Assembly (NCBI GenBank): GCA_001825035.1
Contig: MHUO01000009.1
Location: 20,754 to 78,164 of the forward strand
Reading direction: 5' to 3'
Length of the DNA stretch: 57,411 bases
Origin: Candidatus Wildermuthbacteria bacterium RIFOXYD1_FULL_50_12
GTDB taxonomy: Bacteria; Patescibacteriota; Minisyncoccia; Minisyncoccales; UBA10102
In this document: positions 3,266 to 47,135 of the stretch, in pieces
How positions within the stretch are numbered: position 1 is the first letter of the stretch
How the letters are laid out: each line of letters starts with the position of its first letter
The notes under the pieces: generated by a model
Database searches by the model: none
Told to the model about the DNA's origin: nothing
The model's input: only the letters and a program-made list of their open reading frames with translations
Translations under genes and position numbers: made by a program

Positions 3266-4984
3266 ATGAGCAGTTACAGCTACTATAAGGAAACGAAGAT
3301 CAAGGTGCGTATATCCCCACTCGACTCCGCTCAGGGCGAGCGGCAGATGGCACTTGCTTTTGCTGCACCTGCTCTCGCGAAAAAGCGGCACGCCGCGCTC
3401 GGGCAGTGGGCGCGGGGTGCACTCGTGCTGGGGTTGGCGGGTTTGGTGGTACTGGGAAGTTCCGGATCCGCAATTTTAGCTTCTGCTTTTGAAGCGCACG
3501 TGGTGAACGTAACCGCCCAGATCGAACCGAGGCCGGAAGAAGAAACCACCACCCTTACTGTTACAAAAATTGTGTGTAACGATGAATCACTTCTTCCCAA
3601 CTGGGGCAATGTGAAAGGAGAGCCGCCTATCACGAGTTCAACGGCGGCGGACTTTCTCGCGAATCTCTCTGAAGACCAGGCCGATGACTGCTGGTTGGAA
3701 GAAGGATGGTTTTTCCAGTGGGCACCAGAAGAAGTATTCAACCAGTTTCCTCCACCCCCTCCGAGCAACACCGGAGAAGCGGGCGCTCCTTGGGTTGCCT
3801 TTGGCCCCACGAATATCAGCGGAGTTGCCAGTATCGTAGTGCCTTTGGATAATATCAACCCGCGCATTTGGGTACGAGAAGTGTTCAAAGAAGGATACTT
3901 CCCATTTTCCGTGGAAGATTCTTCGGTGGATGAAGACCTGCTCGCGTTTGACGACGTGTCTGCAGAGTTTTATTGCCACCGAGACGTTATCTATTACGAC
4001 AACCTTGATTTTGTTTCTTATCCTGCAGCTGGCGAAACTTACTACTGCGTGGCGTTCAACGTAGGGGAGCGTCAAGAACAGCTAAGCAGTACGCCGCAGC
4101 AGACAGTAGTGCTCAATGAGATTTTGCCCAATCCCGAAGGAGACGATAATCAAGACGGATTGCTCGGAGAATGGGTGGAACTGTATAACTTGGGAGATTC
4201 TGCGGTGAATGTTGCTAGCTGGTATTTGGAAGATGATTCTTCTTCTGGGAACCGGCAGACCATTTCCGACAGCAACACGCATACCGGCAGTACGGTTATA
4301 GGAGCCATGGGAAGCGGAAGCGAGTGGCTTGTGGTGTTTATGGCTGGAGTCGTGTTAAACAACACCGGAGATACCGTCTCTCTCTACAACACAGCAGACG
4401 AGCTGCAGGACGAGCATATCTATGGTACGAGCGCAAATGATCAAGATAGCGATACCGATACCACGCCCGGAGAAGAAAACGAACCCGCTGATGACGACGA
4501 TGCGGGCAATGAAGGCAAATCCGTAGCGCGTATTCCAGACGGTGCTGGTGATTGGTTTGATCCTGTGCCCACGCCCGGGGGCCCGAACAAGCTGGAGGAT
4601 TTTGGAGAAGAAGATTCTTCTGGTACATCAGATGGGTCTGGTGGTGGTTCGCCACCTCCTCCAGACGAAGAAGGGCACTCTTCTCTTGCGGAAGTCGATG
4701 AAGAAGGAGAGCTCGAAGGGGGAGAAATGCATGAGGCCGCTGAGGAACCTGCTGAGGAAGAGGGCGAAGGAGAAGAATCAGAGGAGGAAGGGAAACTGGA
4801 AGAAGATGAAAGTGAGGAACCAACAGATGGGCTCAGCGGAGAACCTGTGGAAGATTCCAGCGAAGAGGTCATTGTGGAAGTGAACCAAGAGGAGCAAGAT
4901 GTTCAGAGTGAAGATTCAGATAGCGAGGCCGCAGAGGAAGATGGAACTCCCGAGGAAAGTGCTTCTGAGGAACCAGGGGACTAA
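3266..4984 (+). CDS. exported lamin-tail-domain (LTD) protein with a polyacidic C-terminal tail
   Basis: Hydrophobic segment then SAFEAHVVNVTAQIE. LTD signature VVLNEILPNPEGDD...EWVELYN...GDTVSLYN. The last ~170 aa are rich in E and D. Start uncertain; alternative ATG at 3347. Confidence 0.75.
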   Translation: MSSYSYYKETKIKVRISPLDSAQGERQMALAFAAPALAKKRHAALGQWARGALVLGLAGLVVLGSSGSAILASAFEAHVVNVTAQIEPRPEEETTTLTVTKIVCNDESLLPNWGNVKGEPPITSSTAADFLANLSEDQADDCWLEEGWFFQWAPEEVFNQFPPPPPSNTGEAGAPWVAFGPTNISGVASIVVPLDNINPRIWVREVFKEGYFPFSVEDSSVDEDLLAFDDVSAEFYCHRDVIYYDNLDFVSYPAAGETYYCVAFNVGERQEQLSSTPQQTVVLNEILPNPEGDDNQDGLLGEWVELYNLGDSAVNVASWYLEDDSSSGNRQTISDSNTHTGSTVIGAMGSGSEWLVVFMAGVVLNNTGDTVSLYNTADELQDEHIYGTSANDQDSDTDTTPGEENEPADDDDAGNEGKSVARIPDGAGDWFDPVPTPGGPNKLEDFGEEDSSGTSDGSGGGSPPPPDEEGHSSLAEVDEEGELEGGEMHEAAEEPAEEEGEGEESEEEGKLEEDESEEPTDGLSGEPVEDSSEEVIVEVNQEEQDVQSEDSDSEAAEEDGTPEESASEEPGD

Positions 4985-6139: not shown

Positions 6140-6159
6140 GATCAGTGAACGCAAAACAG

Positions 6160-6206
6160 AAAAACACCCTGATCCGCCAGTTGGCGGAGGAAGGGTGTTT
6201 TTCTGT
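6160..6206 (+). terminator. rho-independent terminator after hup
   Basis: AAAAACACCCT...CCGCCA/TGGCGG...AGGGTGTTTTT, a long hairpin ending in a T-run. The A-run on the other side suggests it works in both directions. Confidence 0.7.
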
Positions 6207-6347
6207 TAGTCGGGCCAAGCGGAATTGAACCGCTATCATACCCCCCTGGGCGCGCCGCAGGCGCGGCACCAATCAGGAGTTTGTTCAAAATAGGTTCGAG
6301 CGGCGTTCAGTAATTGCGACCAAGCTAGTGACTAGAAAACGGCACAC

Positions 6348-16074: not shown

Positions 16075-16431
16075 ATGGTAAAAGCCAAGAGCGCACCCCG
16101 TCAGTCCTCCGGCGAAGAGAAAGGAACGCAGCAGAAGCTACGCATTAAGATTTCGGCCTACGACCACAAGGTGATTGACGCTTCCTGCAAGCAGATCATT
16201 GATACGGTCATACGACACGGTTGTGAATTGGTGGGCCCCGTACCCCTCCCAACTGCCATTAAGAAGTACACGGTAAACCGGTCTTCGTTTGTGCACAAAG
16301 ATGCGCGGGAGCAATATGAGATGCGTACGCACAAGCGCCTTATCGATATTTTGGATCCAAGCCCGAAAATGATAGACGCGCTGACGAGCTTAAATCTGCC
16401 CGCAGGCGTAGATATTGAAATTAAAATGTAG
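16075..16431 (+). CDS. rpsJ: 30S ribosomal protein S10
   Basis: [14 protein letters not shown]...PLPT...[28 protein letters not shown]. Confidence 0.93.
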
Positions 16432-28882: not shown

Positions 28883-28937
28883 ATGTGGGGAGAAGAATCG
28901 CCAAATCTGCCTGTTTTTGATAAAATCTAATAATACT

Positions 28938-30113
28938 ATGATTAAGAAGCAACGAGGCCAATTCTTTACCACCGAAGCCGATTACATATTCCAGGGTTTT
29001 GGAAAATATGTAAAAGGTAAATCCATCACTGATCCTTTTGCCGGAAGCGGAGATCTGTTGGAATGGGCAAAAAAGAATGGTGCGAAAGCAGTGTCAGGAT
29101 ATGACGTGGACGCTAGTCTTGCTGATGGAAGAAAGATTTTGTTGAATGATTCCTTATTGCGACCCAAACAATATGGGTTCGTAGTTACGAATCCACCCTA
29201 TTTGAATATCAATAAAGCAGATCGACACACAAAGAGTCTCTATTTCCAGGATCATAAGTACGAAGATCTGTATCAGCTTTCGCTTGCCTCGCTGATAAGC
29301 AGCAAGGAAGGTATCGTAATTGTGCCAGTCAACTTTCTTTCTGCGGAAAACTCAAAAAGGATCAGAGAACTTTTCTTTTCCAAGTTCGAAATTATTGAAC
29401 TGAACTACTTCACGAAACGCGTATTTCCCGACACGACATATAATGTCATTGCTTTTTACTACCGAGAAAAAAAGGATTCTTCGAGTAATTCCATGGTAGC
29501 CAAAGTAAAAATACTCCCAGAAGAAAGGCTCTTGAGTATTGAGCTCAATAAGCGGTTCCATTGGAAAATAGGAGGCGAGGTTTTAACGAGAATTGAAGAA
29601 CAGAAAAATCTTTTGGGGATTCATCGCCTTATTGAATATGATATTAAAAAGGGCGATAGGTTAGTAAAAGTTGCTTACAGCCATATCAAAAAAACACGCG
29701 AGTATCGCGTTTCCGAAGATTTTTATACGGCAATCAAGGCAAATATCCTTTTTCTTCGAGCAATAGATAGCGGCACACCCGAGGGGAAAATCCGCCTTGA
29801 GAATATTCGAGATTATGGCATTGACTGCTTGATTAGCAAGGAAAGTTCGCGACATATGATTAACTTGCTTTTCGATAAGAAAATCTCCCTCAAGGAGCAA
29901 AGAATACTTATGGATCTTTTCAACGAAGAAATCAATAGGTTACGCGACAACTATTTTTCACTTTTCTTGACAAACTTCAGGGATAACAACCGTAAGCGGA
30001 TTTCGTTTGATTTTGCGTATAAATTTATTAATTATTTGTACTTTACTAAAATGAAACCAGAATTGGGGGAGGGAAGATTACTCCCCCTCAAGAATTATGA
30101 ACAGGTGGGTTGA
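28938..30113 (+). CDS. N6-adenine DNA methyltransferase (gamma-class, type II R-M)
   Basis: GQFFTT, then motif I DPFAGSGDLL, then motif IV TNPPY. ATG 28938 preferred over TTG 28917. Confidence 0.85.
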   Translation: MIKKQRGQFFTTEADYIFQGFGKYVKGKSITDPFAGSGDLLEWAKKNGAKAVSGYDVDASLADGRKILLNDSLLRPKQYGFVVTNPPYLNINKADRHTKSLYFQDHKYEDLYQLSLASLISSKEGIVIVPVNFLSAENSKRIRELFFSKFEIIELNYFTKRVFPDTTYNVIAFYYREKKDSSSNSMVAKVKILPEERLLSIELNKRFHWKIGGEVLTRIEEQKNLLGIHRLIEYDIKKGDRLVKVAYSHIKKTREYRVSEDFYTAIKANILFLRAIDSGTPEGKIRLENIRDYGIDCLISKESSRHMINLLFDKKISLKEQRILMDLFNEEINRLRDNYFSLFLTNFRDNNRKRISFDFAYKFINYLYFTKMKPELGEGRLLPLKNYEQVG

Positions 30114-30879
30114 AAAGAGCATAAACATAGCTCAAGGCGTTGGGTATCTTGATAAGCTTTCTGCGGTTTATCCAGTTACAATCAACAAGATACGGAAACT
30201 AAGTTCTGTGGAGGAGCAACGTATTGGAGAGATTTACCGAAAGAAGGATGCGAGACTGTTGATTGAAGTCTTACTTGATTTTAAGCGCTTCCCCTTTGAC
30301 GATCCTTACATTGGATTTCTGCGTAAGGATAGATCGGCAATGAGACGCAACCCAAAAACCGTTAAAAGAATAGGGGAGCAGCTTTTTGAGCTTCACCCCG
30401 TTGGTATTATTAGCGGGATAGAGCGTCCAAAATCTTCTTCTAGACAATTTGGTCAACATTTCAGAAATTACATTGAAAAGTTGAGGTACCCTGTCCTTAA
30501 CGATGCGAATTTTTTGAAAAGTACCAAAGTAGCATTTTTGGGAGGAGGTGATGCACGGCTCAAAACATTTGCAAAACGTTATCTGGGATATCGCGGAGAA
30601 AAGGGATTGGATTTAGTATTTTGTGTAGGAGGAAAATATTTCATAGGCGAGGCAAAATTCATTAGCATGAGCGGCGGTACGCAAGATAAAAGTTTTCGCG
30701 AAACAATAACCTTCGTGAAAGGGAAAAGTGAAAACGCGCAGCATATTGCCATTGTTGATGGTGTTGTTTGGGCTATGACGACAGAAAAGAATCTCTATAA
30801 TAGTATAAGAAAGTTACCTCAAGATAGGTTTATGTTAAGCTCTCTGCTTTTGAAGGAGTTTATCGAGTCTCAGAAATAA
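30097..30879 (+). CDS. putative type II restriction endonuclease (PD-(D/E)xK)
   Basis: LDLVF....YFIGEAKF (D...ExK) followed by SMSGGTQDK. Overlaps the methyltransferase 3' end by 17 nt. Confidence 0.6.
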   Translation: MNRWVEKSINIAQGVGYLDKLSAVYPVTINKIRKLSSVEEQRIGEIYRKKDARLLIEVLLDFKRFPFDDPYIGFLRKDRSAMRRNPKTVKRIGEQLFELHPVGIISGIERPKSSSRQFGQHFRNYIEKLRYPVLNDANFLKSTKVAFLGGGDARLKTFAKRYLGYRGEKGLDLVFCVGGKYFIGEAKFISMSGGTQDKSFRETITFVKGKSENAQHIAIVDGVVWAMTTEKNLYNSIRKLPQDRFMLSSLLLKEFIESQK

Positions 30880-31089: not shown

Positions 31090-31833
31090 ATGGCTGAAGT
31101 GAAGCTGTCAGTGGTGATTCCGGCGTATAACGAAGAAAAGCGGCTGCCAAAAACCCTGCGTGCCGCGCATGATTACCTGAGCAGACAGGGGTATGCATAC
31201 GAGATTTTAGTGGTGTCGGACGGCTCCAAGGACCGGACGCGCGAGGTGGTGGAGGAAATGACCAAGGAAATACCGCATCTCCGTGTGATGGGCGAACAGG
31301 AAAATCATGGAAAGGGGTATTCGGTGCGCCAAGGAATGCTGGCTGCTCAAGGCGAGTTTCGGCTCTTTATGGACGCGGACAACGCCACGAGCGTGGATCA
31401 GGTGGAAAAAATGTGGCCGGAATTGGCAAGGGGATACGAGGTGATAATTGGTTCGCGCGACATTGCTGGAGCGAATATCGCAGTTCCCCAGCCCTGGTGG
31501 CGGAGAAGGTTGGGAGATGTGTTTAACCTTATCGTGCAGATTTTGTCTGGCTTGTGGGGAATATGGGATACACAGTGCGGCTTTAAGGGATTCTCGGCCA
31601 AAGCCGCGGAAGGTATTTTCTCGCGCGCCGTCGTTAACGCGTGGGCGTTTGACGTGGAAGTGTTAGTCATCGCAAAAAAACTCGGATATGCTATCAGGGA
31701 AGTGCCGGTTAGGTGGATGAATGACCCCAGCAGCAAAGTAAAGTTTTCCGGCATGGCAAAAATGCTTTTGGAGGTTTTGCAGATAAGCATACATAATCTT
31801 ATAGGGAAGTATAATATTTCCAGGATAGTATAA
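31090..31833 (+). CDS. family 2 glycosyltransferase (polyprenyl-phosphate sugar transferase-like)
   Basis: SVVIPAYNEEKRL...VVSDGSKDRT...FMDADN. Confidence 0.85.
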   Translation: MAEVKLSVVIPAYNEEKRLPKTLRAAHDYLSRQGYAYEILVVSDGSKDRTREVVEEMTKEIPHLRVMGEQENHGKGYSVRQGMLAAQGEFRLFMDADNATSVDQVEKMWPELARGYEVIIGSRDIAGANIAVPQPWWRRRLGDVFNLIVQILSGLWGIWDTQCGFKGFSAKAAEGIFSRAVVNAWAFDVEVLVIAKKLGYAIREVPVRWMNDPSSKVKFSGMAKMLLEVLQISIHNLIGKYNISRIV

Positions 31834-31896
31834 TTTTGTTCGCGCTTAACCCCTCCTTCGGAGTGGACCCTCGCGTCCCACAAAATTACACTATCC
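31823..31896 (+). repeat. extended hairpin element with a conserved core, copy E1
   Basis: Arms GGATAGTATAATTTTGT / ACAAAATTACACTATCC flank the core TCGCGCTTAACCCCTCCTTCGGAGTGGACCCTCGCGTC. The 5' arm overlaps the GT2 stop codon. Confidence 0.75.
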
Positions 31897-31911
31897 TTCC
31901 AAGTATACCGT

Positions 31912-36974: not shown

Positions 36975-38714
36975 ATGGATTCAAGCGAGTTGCGGACACG
37001 ATTTTTGGATTATTTCAAAGAAAAGGGGCATACGATTGTGCCTTCTTCTTCGCTTTTGCCCGACGATCCTTCTGTGCTGTTGACGACCGCCGGAATGCAG
37101 CAATTTAAGCCATATTATACTGGTGCGGCCGACCCATTTCGCTCTCCGCACCCCACGCTTGAGGGAAAGCCGCTCGGGAGCAAAAACGCGGCCTCAATCC
37201 AAAAAAGTTTTCGGACTTCCGACATTGATGAAGTGGGCGACGAACGGCATCTGACCTTCTTTGAGATGATGGGGAACTTTTCCTTTGGTGGATATTTCAA
37301 AGAGGAGGCGATTCTCTACGCAAAAGAATTTTTGGACTCTCTTGGCGTCTCCATTGAATACGTTACGGTATTTGGCGGAGATAAGGATGTTCCGCGGGAT
37401 GAGGAATCGGTGAAGATATGGGAGAAATACGGATTTTCTGCAGCGAAAGGCAATCTCAAATTTATGGGTAGGGAAGATAATTTCTGGGGACCCACCGGAG
37501 CCGAAGGTCCTTGCGGCCCCACTACTGAGATTTATGCCGGGGGCATTGAAGTTTGGAATATTGTATTTAACGAATATTATCAAAAAGCCGATAAAACTTT
37601 AGAAAAACTACCAACACCCGGCGTGGATACCGGCATGGGGCTGGAACGGCTGGCTAGGGTTTTACAAAAGAAAGCCACCGTCTTTGAAACCGATCTCTTT
37701 TTGCGAGCTATGGCGGAATTGCCGGAGGATTTGGACGAGAGAATCCGGCGGATTTTTGGCGATCACACGAGGGCCATTGCATTTTTGCTTGCAGACGGAG
37801 TGCTTCCGTCAAATAAGGAAGCTGGATACGTGTTGCGCCGCCTTATGCGCCGCCTGCTTGTGTACGAACATTTAGATGCTCGCATTGCAACCGAAAAACT
37901 CTTGGAAAGAGTGGTGGAAACGTACGGGCATCCATATTCCAATTTGCGCAAAGAGTTTATTTTGCAGGGCTTTCGAGCTGAAAAAGAACGTTTTCAGCAA
38001 AGCATCGCACGAGGATTAAAGGAACTTCAGCGCCTCCCGGCCCTCAATGCGCGCAATGCGTTTTCTCTATACGAGAGCTACGGCATTCCCTATGAAATTA
38101 TCAAGGAGCTGGGCGGACAAAGAGCTCAAGGCCTCGCGCGCGAGGGTTTTGATGCAGAGTTTGCGAAGCATCAGGAGATTTCGCGGGCGGGACAGGAGCG
38201 GAAATTCGGCGGACACGGTTTGATCCTCAATACGGGGGAACTGAAGGCCGCAAACGAAGAAGAGGCGAAAATAGTGACGCGTCTCCACACGGCAACCCAT
38301 CTTATGCAAGCCGCGTTGAGGAGAGTTCTCGGAGAGGGCGTTCGTCAAGCGGGTTCCGACATCACGGCTGAGCGTACGCGCTTTGACTTTACCTTTGACC
38401 GAAAACTCGCGCCAGAGGAAATTCGGCAGGTGGAAGAACTTGTGAACAAAGCCATTCAAGACGATTTGCTGGTAACATATGAAGAGCTCCCGTACGAAGA
38501 AGCGGTTAAAACGGGCGCGCTCCATTTTGCAAAAGAGAAGTATCCGCAGCGCGTGAAGGTATACACTATGGATTCCAAATATCCCGAACCATTTTCCAAG
38601 GAATTGTGCGGAGGGCCGCACGTGCAGCGCACGGGGGAACTTGGGCATTTTAAAGTTCTCAAAGAAGAAGCGGTGTCTGCGGGTATTCGTCGCATCCGTG
38701 CGACAGTGAAGTAG
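36975..38714 (+). CDS. alaS: alanine--tRNA ligase, short form (no C-Ala domain)
   Basis: TTAGMQQFKPYY, FEMMGNFSFGGYFK, GVDTGMGLERL, and editing-site HTATHLMQAAL...CGGPHV. Only 579 aa. Confidence 0.88.
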   Translation: MDSSELRTRFLDYFKEKGHTIVPSSSLLPDDPSVLLTTAGMQQFKPYYTGAADPFRSPHPTLEGKPLGSKNAASIQKSFRTSDIDEVGDERHLTFFEMMGNFSFGGYFKEEAILYAKEFLDSLGVSIEYVTVFGGDKDVPRDEESVKIWEKYGFSAAKGNLKFMGREDNFWGPTGAEGPCGPTTEIYAGGIEVWNIVFNEYYQKADKTLEKLPTPGVDTGMGLERLARVLQKKATVFETDLFLRAMAELPEDLDERIRRIFGDHTRAIAFLLADGVLPSNKEAGYVLRRLMRRLLVYEHLDARIATEKLLERVVETYGHPYSNLRKEFILQGFRAEKERFQQSIARGLKELQRLPALNARNAFSLYESYGIPYEIIKELGGQRAQGLAREGFDAEFAKHQEISRAGQERKFGGHGLILNTGELKAANEEEAKIVTRLHTATHLMQAALRRVLGEGVRQAGSDITAERTRFDFTFDRKLAPEEIRQVEELVNKAIQDDLLVTYEELPYEEAVKTGALHFAKEKYPQRVKVYTMDSKYPEPFSKELCGGPHVQRTGELGHFKVLKEEAVSAGIRRIRATVK

Positions 38715-38724
38715 ACAAACGCTC

Positions 38725-38797
38725 GCATTACGACTTTTTCTTGCGCTTTACCCCTCCTTCGGAGTGGACCCTCGCGTCTGCGAAAAAGTCGTAATGC
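38725..38797 (+). repeat. extended hairpin element with a conserved core, copy E2
   Basis: Arms GCATTACGACTTTTT / AAAAAGTCGTAATGC (15 bp) flank the core TTGCGCTTTACCCCTCCTTCGGAGTGGACCCTCGCGTC. Starts 10 nt after the alaS stop. Confidence 0.75.
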
Positions 38798-38838
38798 TCG
38801 CTTTGTATTCAAAGGTATTTGATGTACAATACATCTAT

Positions 38839-42079: not shown

Positions 42080-42166
42080 TATGGGTCCCGTACGAAATTC
42101 CCTGGGTCAAAGGGTATTTCCACGGGTAATAGAAAAAGATAACAAACGAAATTTCGTACGGGATGG
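42080..42166 (+). repeat. ~85-nt inverted-repeat element, copy L1, between rpsM and rpsK
   Basis: 13-bp perfect arms TCCCGTACGAAAT (42086) and ATTTCGTACGGGA (42151). The 3' arm ends on the A of the rpsK ATG. Homologous copy at 47050-47135. Confidence 0.8.
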
Positions 42167-44752: not shown

Positions 44753-45166
44753 ATGCCTCGTGTTTCAGCCAAAAAAACTGAATATGTGGAAACGGTAGGA
44801 AGAAGGAAAACCGCCGTTGCGCGGATTCGTCTTTCCCCCGCCTCAAAAAGCCAGTTTATAGTAAACCAGAAACCTCTGGAAGAATACGTGCAGGAAACTT
44901 CGTATCAGAATATCGCGAGAGAATCCTTGGAGAAGGGGAGTCCGGGAAAGAGTTTTGCTGTTTCGGTGTTGGTGCGCGGAGGCGGGCCTCATGCACAGGC
45001 AGAGGCCATTCGCCAGGGGATTAGCCGTGCACTCGTAAAAACAGATCCAGAACTTCGGGCAAATCTCAAAGCGCTTGGATTTCTCACGCGTGACTCTCGG
45101 ATGAGAGAGCGCAAAAAATTCGGTCTCAAGCGCGCCCGCCGCGCGCGGCAGTGGCGCAAGAGGTAG
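44753..45166 (+). CDS. rpsI: 30S ribosomal protein S9
   Basis: GRRKTAVARIRL...GGG..AQAEAIR.GISRAL...LTRDSRMRERKKFGLKRARRARQW.KR. Confidence 0.94.
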   Translation: MPRVSAKKTEYVETVGRRKTAVARIRLSPASKSQFIVNQKPLEEYVQETSYQNIARESLEKGSPGKSFAVSVLVRGGGPHAQAEAIRQGISRALVKTDPELRANLKALGFLTRDSRMRERKKFGLKRARRARQWRKR

Positions 45167-45182
45167 CTACGAGTATCGCTCG

Positions 45183-45253
45183 CATCGCGGATTTTCCTCG
45201 CGCTTAACCCCTCCTTCGGAGTGGACCCTCGCGTCTTCGGAAAACCCGCGATG
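45183..45253. repeat. extended hairpin element with a conserved core, copy E3
   Basis: Arms CATCGCGGATTTTCC / GGAAAACCCGCGATG flank the core TCGCGCTTAACCCCTCCTTCGGAGTGGACCCTCGCGTC. Lies between convergent rpsI and the PEGA-domain gene. Confidence 0.75.
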
Positions 45254-45269: not shown

Positions 45270-46124
45270 CTATGGGAGAAGTTTATTTGAAACAAGAATC
45301 TGATCTCCTGTGTACACGAGGAGTGTTTTTTCTGCTGGCTGCCAGACGAGCTCGGGATTGGGGAATGAGGCAAGTTCTACCATATTGAGGCGGTCGCGCG
45401 TGTCTATTTCAGAAATCATAATGGTGTCACCCTTTGTGAATAAAAGGTAGTGCGGGGTAAACCACGCAAGATTGCTAATGTCCTGACCGAATCTCGTAAG
45501 AAATATGCGCTCTCCTTTTGCGTGGGAGGGTTGTTCTCGTTCGTCTTGAAGGTAGTATAGCCACAATTCGCTTCCAACAGACAGCGCAATTTTCTTCCCG
45601 TCGGGAGACAGAACCGCTTGCGTAAAAGAGGAAAATAATTCTTTTAACTCGGGATACTGGGTTTCAAGATCGGTAGCGTCTTTTAAAGTGTCGAGAGGGA
45701 CGCTCTCTTCTCCATTTGGCGAAGGCAAAAGGGCTTGCGCGTCTTCAGGCAGTGGAGTGAAGGCGGGGTCTTTGGGCACGAGAACAATATTCTTCGCTTC
45801 CGTTACTTGCCTTGGGAAGACCTGAAGGCGCTTTTCCCATGAATGATATCCTTCTTTTTCTACGCGGATAAGATAGGTATTCGGAAGAAAATTTTCCGCG
45901 AGAGTAGTTCCCAAAATGCGGGTCGTGCGCCCGATGGATTGATCGTTGACAAATACTTCAGCTTGCGCCGGATTGATGTTGAGATAGAACGCCCCCCCTT
46001 GAGAGAACCAGCGTTCTTGCCAGTCAAAGCGGTAGCCTTGGGAATAGAAGATAATAGCGGGAGTCCCCGCCAGAAACACCGCTCCGAGAAATAAGAATAG
46101 TATCGTTCTGCTTCGTTTGGTCAT
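45270..46124 (-). CDS. membrane-anchored PEGA-domain protein
   Basis: N-terminal TM. PEGA-like NPAQAEVFVNDQSIG...YLIRVEKEGYHSWEK. The C-terminal part has SPDGKKIALS, which is beta-propeller-like. Confidence 0.75.
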   Translation of the reverse strand: MTKRSRTILFLFLGAVFLAGTPAIIFYSQGYRFDWQERWFSQGGAFYLNINPAQAEVFVNDQSIGRTTRILGTTLAENFLPNTYLIRVEKEGYHSWEKRLQVFPRQVTEAKNIVLVPKDPAFTPLPEDAQALLPSPNGEESVPLDTLKDATDLETQYPELKELFSSFTQAVLSPDGKKIALSVGSELWLYYLQDEREQPSHAKGERIFLTRFGQDISNLAWFTPHYLLFTKGDTIMISEIDTRDRLNMVELASFPNPELVWQPAEKTLLVYTGDQILVSNKLLP

Positions 46125-46931: not shown

Positions 46932-46948
46932 CAAGGGCTTTGGCTCAG

Positions 46949-46982
46949 AGGCGCCTGGATCGCGTACGCGATCCAGGCGCCT
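46949..46982 (+). terminator. 34-nt perfect palindrome after the 46209 gene
   Basis: AGGCGCCTGGATCGCGTACGCGATCCAGGCGCCT, followed by a T-rich tract (CTTTTCTGCGGCTTTTT). Confidence 0.55.
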
Positions 46983-47049: not shown

Positions 47050-47135
47050 ATATGGTCCCGTACGAAATCCCGAGGTACAAGGGCATTTCTATCGGGAGTA
47101 AGAGAAGATAACAAGCGAAATTTCGTACGGGATGG
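47050..47135 (+). repeat. ~85-nt inverted-repeat element, copy L2, upstream of murA
   Basis: Same 13-bp arms at 47056 and 47120. The 3' arm ends on the A of the murA ATG. Confidence 0.8.

Follow-up and report, generated by a model that had tools for sequence, protein, structure and literature searches.

Three hairpins with one shared core stand behind three unrelated genes in a groundwater genome of Wildermuthbacteria (CPR/Parcubacteria). Are they conserved structures of the mRNAs that end there, or repeats that were inserted at the ends of genes? The window, by which we mean the whole 57,411-nt stretch of DNA analysed, holds the three copies (c1, c2 and c3) within 13.4 kb; the elements are non-coding and 82-100 nt long. 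The 36-nt pattern GCGCTTWACCCCTCCTTCGGAGTGGACCCTCGCGTC had three exact matches in the window, all on the + strand (31842-31877, 38743-38778 and 45200-45235), and none in 100 dinucleotide-preserving shuffles of it. This confirms the three copies with an invariant core that the initial annotation had reported. The cores are identical except at two degenerate positions. The features are as follows.

31822-31897, + strand: c1 hairpin; 18-bp outer stem AGGATAGTATAATTTTGT / ACAAAATTACACTATCCT, with one A.C mismatch, around the core
31842-31877, + strand: c1 core, GCGCTTAACCCCTCCTTCGGAGTGGACCCTCGCGTC
31790-31900, + strand: c1 insertion block, limits approximate; ~110 nt made up of 32 extra nt, the c1 hairpin and TCC
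31090-31833, + strand: gene upstream of c1, family-2 glycosyltransferase (GT2)
38715-38806, + strand: c2 full hairpin, ACAAA-C-GCTCGC-ATTACGAC-TTTTTC-(core)-GAAAAA-GTCGTAAT-GCTCGC-TTTGT
38743-38778, + strand: c2 core; the W position is T
38721-38726, + strand: c2 5' basal GCTCGC motif, with its partner at 38796-38801
38796-38801, + strand: c2 3' basal GCTCGC motif
36975-38714, + strand: gene upstream of c2, alanyl-tRNA synthetase (alaS), 579 aa
45178-45259, + strand: c3 hairpin, GCTCGC-ATCGCGGA-TTTTCC-(core)-GGAAAA-CCCGCGAT-GTTTCGC, with one A.C mismatch
45200-45235, + strand: c3 core
44753-45166, + strand: gene upstream of c3, ribosomal protein S9 (rpsI), the last of the rpsM...rplM-rpsI string

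We found that every copy follows the 3' end of a co-oriented gene (GT2, alaS or rpsI in the window). The gene-terminal position noted at the outset holds for 6/6 readable copies when those of a second genome (see below) are included, and these lie 0-37 nt behind the stop codon of the upstream gene. c2 begins right behind the TAG stop of alaS (38712-38714), and c3 lies between the stop of rpsI (45164-45166) and that of a convergent PEGA-domain gene (45270-45272). The PEGA protein clusters with proteins labelled Candidatus Wildermuthbacteria at NCBI, and the scaffold around the window, 173.6 kb long, comes from Rifle groundwater. The TAA stop of GT2 (31831-31833) is inside the 5' arm of c1, and the element supplies the last four codons and the stop of this gene. 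Just upstream of the GT2 gene, positions 28917-30879 of the window hold Eco57I-like and Tsp45I-like genes, a restriction-modification pair.

The family is small. In Logan run X18 the core had a depth of 66.6, compared to 10.8 in the flanks, indicating approximately 6 copies per genome. Logan contigs of many runs that contain the window genome end at the core, as expected for a repeat. Metatranscriptome runs of the same studies yielded no contigs of this genome. Three further contigs of run X18 carry family copies with 4-8 differences, and the flank consensus of the further Logan copies is again GATGCTCGCATCGCGACTTTTTCTT...TGCGAAAAAGYCGYGATGCTCGC. Another contig of this run (9669 bp, at genome depth) passes from the core directly into a full element of a second hairpin family (described below; joint 45233 -> 42086); here the two families are inserted either one within the other or side by side.

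An exact 21-mer scan of genome contigs from a species-representative collection yielded one chance match and a sole genuine other genome, JACOZJ01, a MAG of Candidatus Wildermuthbacteria. It has three copies, one behind recR (locus L003) and two on locus L002, behind a DUF763 gene and behind an HhH-GPD gene. The initial annotation had suggested a covariance model, and one built on four copies found the last of these (L002:761-836), a diverged copy with a shorter apical loop (CUC-UGUG-GAG). Complementarity of the stem held in the further copies. The model scored c1, c2 and c3 at 69.8, 104.4 and 100.7 bits, and there was no further copy in the window, in the 9 kb beyond each window end or in the loci of relatives. 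The 34-nt apical module is nearly invariant across the two MAGs, and the core differences that we saw among copies all fall within the apical triloop (UUC replaced by CUC, UCC or UGUG).

The two L002 copies (761-836 and 3510-3586) have near-identical arms, are in direct orientation and bracket three genes, encoding a pterin-4a-carbinolamine dehydratase, a 297-aa protein with weak HTH_23/HTH_28/HTH_7 matches, and the DUF763 protein. The JACOZJ01 loci covered here and the window genome have no gene in common. An exact 21-mer scan of metagenome contigs gave only chance coding matches in acidobacterial contigs; this collection is evidently without Rifle contigs and has no bearing on rarity. Viral contigs had no match to the core 21-mer, to the gapped core pattern or to the terminal inverted repeat (TIR) of the second hairpin family.

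The copies fold into long hairpins. Stretches of 91-96 nt with c1-c3 folded far better than shuffles on either strand (z of -4.0 to -7.6). The inverted arms around each of these cores are 15-23 nt long and 87-94% complementary. Outer stems of 15-17 complementary bp had been described initially; complementary arms are present, but the hairpins are longer. The stem continues through GCUCGC/GCUCGC, which pairs as GC/GC around a 2x2 loop, and there are 4-9 further variable pairs beyond, giving stems of 30-40 bp interrupted by internal loops. On both strands the apex has a T-run before it and an A-run behind it.

We found that the stem sequence is not completely different in each copy, as had been stated. 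Only the arms of c1 are unrelated to those of other copies. The arms of c2 and c3 are homologous (GCTCGCATtacgacTTTTT vs GCTCGCATcgcggaTTTT), and c2, c3 and the JACOZJ01 copies have one architecture in common, in diverged form: GCTCGC-AT-(about 8 variable bp)-TTTT-core-AAAA-(complement)-AT-GCTCGC. Homologous arms, GCTCGC included, occur at unrelated loci in c2, c3, the recR copy and at least three further Logan copies, which lends no support to the suggestion that the element captures local sequence. In a terminal-inverted-repeat test every copy had inverted arms; GCTCGC, AT and the T/A runs are all that the arms of different copies have in common.

The arms stay complementary while they drift, and the 34-nt apex and the basal GCTCGC pair are nearly invariant. 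Among six copies, 12/16 outer-stem pairs change on both sides, and 92.9% of the outer-stem cells are paired, compared to 42-55% in slid controls. The c2 and recR copies, at unrelated loci, differ at 4/82 positions, which make up two compensatory pairs. The two inner helices are invariant in all copies, so covariation neither supports nor opposes them. Compensatory variation had been taken to argue for selection on structure. The variation is there, but it is only half an argument because paired arms are equally expected for a DNA palindrome.

The two strands are not equivalent as structures. c1 and c3 do have the single outer-stem mismatch that was initially called G-U-compatible. It is A.C on the + strand and compatible with G.U only on the minus strand, as are all four single outer-stem mismatches found. 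This bias is suggestive only (n = 4, p about 0.06). In the conserved GCTCGC pair the + strand has tandem U.C/C.U where the minus strand has tandem G.A/A.G, and the minus-strand fold is better by 2-9 kcal/mol in 6/6 copies. The sole feature favouring the + strand is a C/U opposite G in the inner stem, which alternates between C-G and U-G there. Because the mismatches harm a sense-strand RNA and spare the minus strand, they weaken the case for selection on a sense-RNA hairpin. The + strand is the G-rich leading strand across the whole window, and all window copies have the same orientation to it.

Searches against known RNA features gave little. Rfam 15 at the gathering threshold gave only four tRNA-model matches in the whole window. 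At E<=10, the region 38690-38830 gave only a chance XIST_intron match (14 bits vs a gathering score of 70), so that the Rfam search suggested initially found no matching family even at this threshold. A scan for intrinsic terminators called none at c1, c2 or c3, and the tails (CCTTCCAAG, CTTTGTATTC and TTATGTGTTG) have no U-tract, which speaks against the terminator that had been among the first candidates. The noted resemblance to the anti-Shine-Dalgarno sequence did not hold up in the family: CCUCCUU is not conserved, and in other copies the triloop is CUC or UCC, or the sequence reads CCCCUCUGUGGAG. An anti-Shine-Dalgarno decoy was rejected, as the heptamer is buried in the stem and changed in three other copies.

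We found that the elements are insertions, absent or fragmentary at orthologous sites in close relatives. At the c1 site, GT2 and galT overlap by 8 nt (ATGCGTAA) in a relative with an 83% identical galT (L011), and the element is absent; the window carries approximately 110 extra nt by comparison, and both gene ends are rewritten. At the c2 site, alaS overlaps the next gene in L008 (AlaRS 74%) and in L012/L013 (64%). In a closer relative (L007, 83%) only CTCGCACCGCGGCTTT is kept, fused to the conserved right flank, and the site reads CTCGCACCGCGGCTTTGTG. This fragment matches 17/21 positions of the family 5'-arm consensus and would most simply be a deletion remnant. In a low-depth Rifle relative just the 3' half of the element is left, ACAAA-TCCT-TTCGGAGTGG..., with the joint at 38719->38758. 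At the c3 site of L012 the convergent gene overlaps rpsI, and the element is absent. The recR copy of JACOZJ01 is absent from relatives with 92% and 90% identical RecR (L016 and L017), in which recR abuts its neighbour; the insertion is a block of ~195 nt that comprises the hairpin and a sigma-70 promoter with 11/12 matches.

This promoter (TTGACT-16-TATAAT; L003 2790-2817, minus strand of the locus) is near consensus and lies 14 nt behind the recR copy, inside the ~195-nt block. The sequence of its -10 region, ATAGTATAAT, recurs unchanged within the 5' arm of c1.

Some relatives do have the copies. In Rifle relatives ~87% and ~83% identical, c1 and c3 occupy the same sites (scored as presence at the site), and a 99.6% identical strain (L018) has an identical c3. 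We saw no strain-level presence/absence of this family, unlike that of the neighbouring MITE described below. No target-site duplication (TSD) was found. The flanking CTCG was tried as a 4-bp TSD (target GCTCGC) and rejected: CTCG is absent from the empty recR sites of L016/L017, so the flanking GCTCGC belongs to the element. c1 is flanked by TTCCA, which is ambiguous as a TSD given an insertion of ~110 nt with unclear limits. Blocks were gained in intergenic or even overlapping gene junctions right behind stop codons and were later lost piecemeal. Since copies are missing from the same sites in relatives, they appear to be REP/MITE-type inserted repeats and not a conserved regulatory RNA. The REP/MITE-like element is the best supported of the initial candidates, given dispersed repeats that are absent or fragmentary at orthologous sites.

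Other palindromic elements are present in the same genome. A second hairpin family, at window positions 42086-42163 (between rpsM and rpsK) and 47056-47132 (before aroA), is a textbook MITE of 77-78 nt, with a 14-bp TIR (TCCCGTACGAAAT(T/C) ... AAATTTCGTACGGGA) and a TSD of 4-5 bp, (A)TGG(G). Both copies land exactly on a start codon (of rpsK and of aroA), and the last A of the element together with the duplicated TGG rebuilds the ATG. L012 and L008 have empty sites, and exactly 82 nt are missing from a co-occurring low-depth strain. The last 30 nt at the 3' end of this family reach about 6.5x genome depth.

A 42-nt segment at window positions 46937-46978 makes a perfect 34-nt palindrome (46949-46982; AGGCGCCTGGATCGCGT|ACGCGATCCAGGCGCCT), 6-8 nt beyond the stop codon of a TPR-like gene. 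The segment is absent from the 99.6% identical strain L018, and the flank contributes the outer 2-4 nt of the right arm. An indel of this kind between strains so similar indicates that palindromic insertions are arising now in this lineage. Positions 2335-2368 hold another perfect 34-nt intergenic palindrome (CCCCGCACCTTTTGCGT|ACGCAAAAGGTGCGGGG), the centre of which, GCGTACGC, is shared with the 46949 palindrome. GCGTACGC occurs 5 times (in the 2335-2368 palindrome, at 46962-46969, and at 16323, 38372 and 39174) vs 0.47 expected. CGTACG, which the TIR of the second hairpin family contains as well, occurs 18 times vs 5.9 expected. After the HU gene, positions 6155-6207 form a 16-bp hairpin with an inner CCGCC-AGTT-GGCGG hairpin, a long 3' hairpin without a U-tail.

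Based on these results we suggest, with a probability of about 0.55, that c1-c3 belong to a small, fairly old family (approximately 6 copies per genome) of non-autonomous, trans-mobilised and essentially selfish palindromic insertion elements, to which the REP/MITE type is closest. A trans-acting protein encoded elsewhere would recognise the invariant apex and the GCTCGC base and copy or move the element, and the stem between them would only have to pair. The textbook MITE and the strain-polymorphic perfect palindrome of the same genome are supporting context. With no target duplication and a strand-specific insertion, the most likely class of enzyme, as a guess, would be HUH/Y1 (RAYT or IS200/IS605-like), acting by a single-strand hairpin mechanism. 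The predicted active hairpin of HUH enzymes is on the lagging-strand template, here the + strand, and the better-folding strand is the minus strand, which is evidence against this class. No mobilising gene (transposase, RAYT or other; Pfam) was found in the ~76 kb of window-genome context or in the 16 kb of JACOZJ01 loci. Once inserted, the element would necessarily be transcribed at the 3' end of the upstream mRNA, and a host role there, as a 3' hairpin or an operon divider, is possible but would be secondary.

Several observations run against a mobile element. For a REP or MITE family there are very few copies, the arms and linkers are far less conserved than the core, c1 and c3 persist at their sites, and all six readable copies are co-oriented with transcription. 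Conservation of the core and retention of c1 and c3 would also fit a host function. On that reading, which we consider unlikely although it deserves serious attention, the family is a functional module of the sense RNA, such as a terminator without a U-tail ('I-shaped'), a block to 3' exonucleases, an RNase III site or an operon insulator. Its invariant apex would bind an RNA-binding protein, and copies would have spread by duplication because they are useful. The uniform place 0-37 nt behind co-oriented genes, the apex that hardly varies between the two MAGs on arms that drift with compensating changes, the persistence of c1 and c3 in relatives ~83-87% identical and the C-G/U-G alternation on the + strand are as expected for such a module. 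So are the terminator-like places of c2, ahead of a promoter-like region, and of c3, between convergent genes. The promoter brought by the JACOZJ01 recR insertion lies directly behind the hairpin, as would suit a polar hairpin that left the downstream gene in need of a new one. But no U-tract follows any copy and the terminator scan called none, all 4/4 mismatches are A.C on the sense strand, the basal loop is tandem U.C/C.U there vs stable tandem G.A on the antisense strand, and the antisense strand folds better in every copy. The alaS copy is dispensable, since two relatives show independent decay of it and others lack it, with the genes intact; c1 came between two genes that had overlapped and were presumably coupled. 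A reading that joins both ideas, of a mobile yet host-kept hairpin module new in CPR, in which a one-strand enzyme would recognise the 34-nt apex and the basal GCGAGC/GCGAGC across a free stem and copies would serve as operon punctuation, once with their own promoter, is doubtful.

A little more doubtful still is that the minus strand is the acting molecule, either as a single-stranded DNA substrate for recombination or transposition (cf. the bottom strand of integron attC sites) or as an antisense RNA, with the orientation to genes following replication direction and not transcription. Outer-stem mismatches (4/4) wobble only on the minus strand, where the GCGAGC/GCGAGC base would give tandem sheared G.A pairs and the MFE is lower in 6/6 copies, and all window copies have one orientation relative to the G-rich leading strand. 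Set against this are the small sample of mismatches (n = 4, as above), the inner-stem T/C opposite G and the place of the minus strand as leading-strand template, the less exposed strand. A scan at the copies found no antisense promoter, and there is no integrase or recombinase gene in the ~76 kb context or the JACOZJ01 loci. It is very improbable that a mobile 38-nt core enters the loops of pre-existing local hairpins, or triggers an inverted duplication of its flanks, so that the stems are local sequence. The arms of c1 are unrelated to others and its 5' arm (AGGATAGTATAATTTTGT) is similar to the flank upstream of it (GGGAAGTATAATATTTCC), long core-less palindromes occur in other intergenic spacers (2335-2368, 46949-46982 and 6155-6207), and pairing extends beyond the conserved GCTCGC, all of which would fit. 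Yet c2, c3, the recR copy and at least three further copies have homologous arms at unrelated loci, the two L002 copies have common arms, and there is no pre-existing hairpin at the GT2/galT, alaS, rpsI or recR junctions of element-less relatives, where the genes overlap or abut.

The genomes of CPR/Patescibacteria are small and densely packed, and mobile DNA is generally considered scarce in them. In this lineage, by comparison, three kinds of palindromic insertion are colonising the junctions of housekeeping genes, and some of them separate genes that used to overlap and alter the ends of genes. An enzyme that mobilises the family, or an RNA-binding partner, if found, would inform the evolution of operon structure in ultra-small genomes. 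At present, the family extends the catalogue of bacterial intergenic repeats in a modest and descriptive way.

Compared with known systems, the family resembles intrinsic terminators in having a GC-containing hairpin directly after a stop codon, and in the place of c3 between convergent genes. It differs from them in its 30-40-bp stems with internal loops, in the missing U-tail and in carrying the same 34-nt apex at unrelated genes. Integron attC sites are imperfect palindromes of 57-141 nt at the 3' end of co-oriented genes, with a stem that varies in sequence while its structure is kept and with the folded bottom strand as the active one. The elements described here are like them in their position behind a co-oriented gene and in the variable stem with a kept structure. 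However, attC sites conserve the outer R''/R' sites (RYYYAAC/GTTRRRY) and vary at the apex, whereas here the ends are GCTCGC...GCTCGC, or AGGATAG...CTATCCT in c1, and the apex is invariant. Unlike in a cassette array, the flanking genes are syntenic housekeeping genes (alaS, rpsI and recR), the order of which is conserved in element-less relatives, and no intI/integrase gene was found in the annotated context.

The bacterial MITE-type elements Correia/NEMIS of Neisseria and RPE of Rickettsia are closer, and some Correia elements bring a promoter. Like Correia and RPE elements, ours are ~80-110 nt long, non-coding and hairpin-forming, insert into tight junctions and gene ends, and vary in presence/absence; one copy (that at JACOZJ01 recR) comes with a promoter, as some Correia elements do. 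The copies are short, non-coding and dispersed (3 in the window, ~6 in the genome and 3 in JACOZJ01), with presence/absence at the c1, c2, c3 and recR sites. Unlike MITEs, they have no target-site duplication. Every copy has inverted arms, of which the copies share little beyond GCTCGC, and a search of ~76 kb from the window genome and 16 kb from JACOZJ01 found no related autonomous IS.

REP/BIME sequences of proteobacteria are short, non-coding imperfect palindromes that lie between genes, typically just behind them, and are co-transcribed. They are mobilised by RAYT, an HUH Y1 transposase, and occur also as REPIN doublets. REPs are without TIR/TSD signatures, their hairpin is recognised by a trans factor, and they persist at orthologous sites yet come and go. 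They are recognised by a palindrome of 20-40 nt, a GTAG-type tetranucleotide at the 5' foot, a RAYT (Y1_Tnp) gene that is usually REP-flanked, and tens to hundreds of copies. The present elements are likewise dispersed, intergenic imperfect palindromes behind genes, without a TSD or a clear TIR signature and variable among relatives. They are unlike REPs in the length of the palindrome (80-100 nt, not 20-40) and in number (~6 copies, not tens to hundreds), and the gene tables searched (~76 kb and the JACOZJ01 loci) have no RAYT gene. There is no GTAG directly at the foot of the hairpin; GTAG occurs 5-16 nt upstream in c2, c3, the recR copy, L002b and one further copy, mostly within ..G TAG stops, and is absent in c1, L002a and two further copies. 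The family works like a REP/MITE-type repeat yet lacks the defining marks of each (no TSD, no GTAG foot, low copy number). REPs and REPINs conserve their stem and leave the loop or spacer free to vary. Here the apex is conserved and the stem variable, and this conserved tip on a free stem, the reverse of the usual REP/MITE logic, points to a mode of recognition not yet described.
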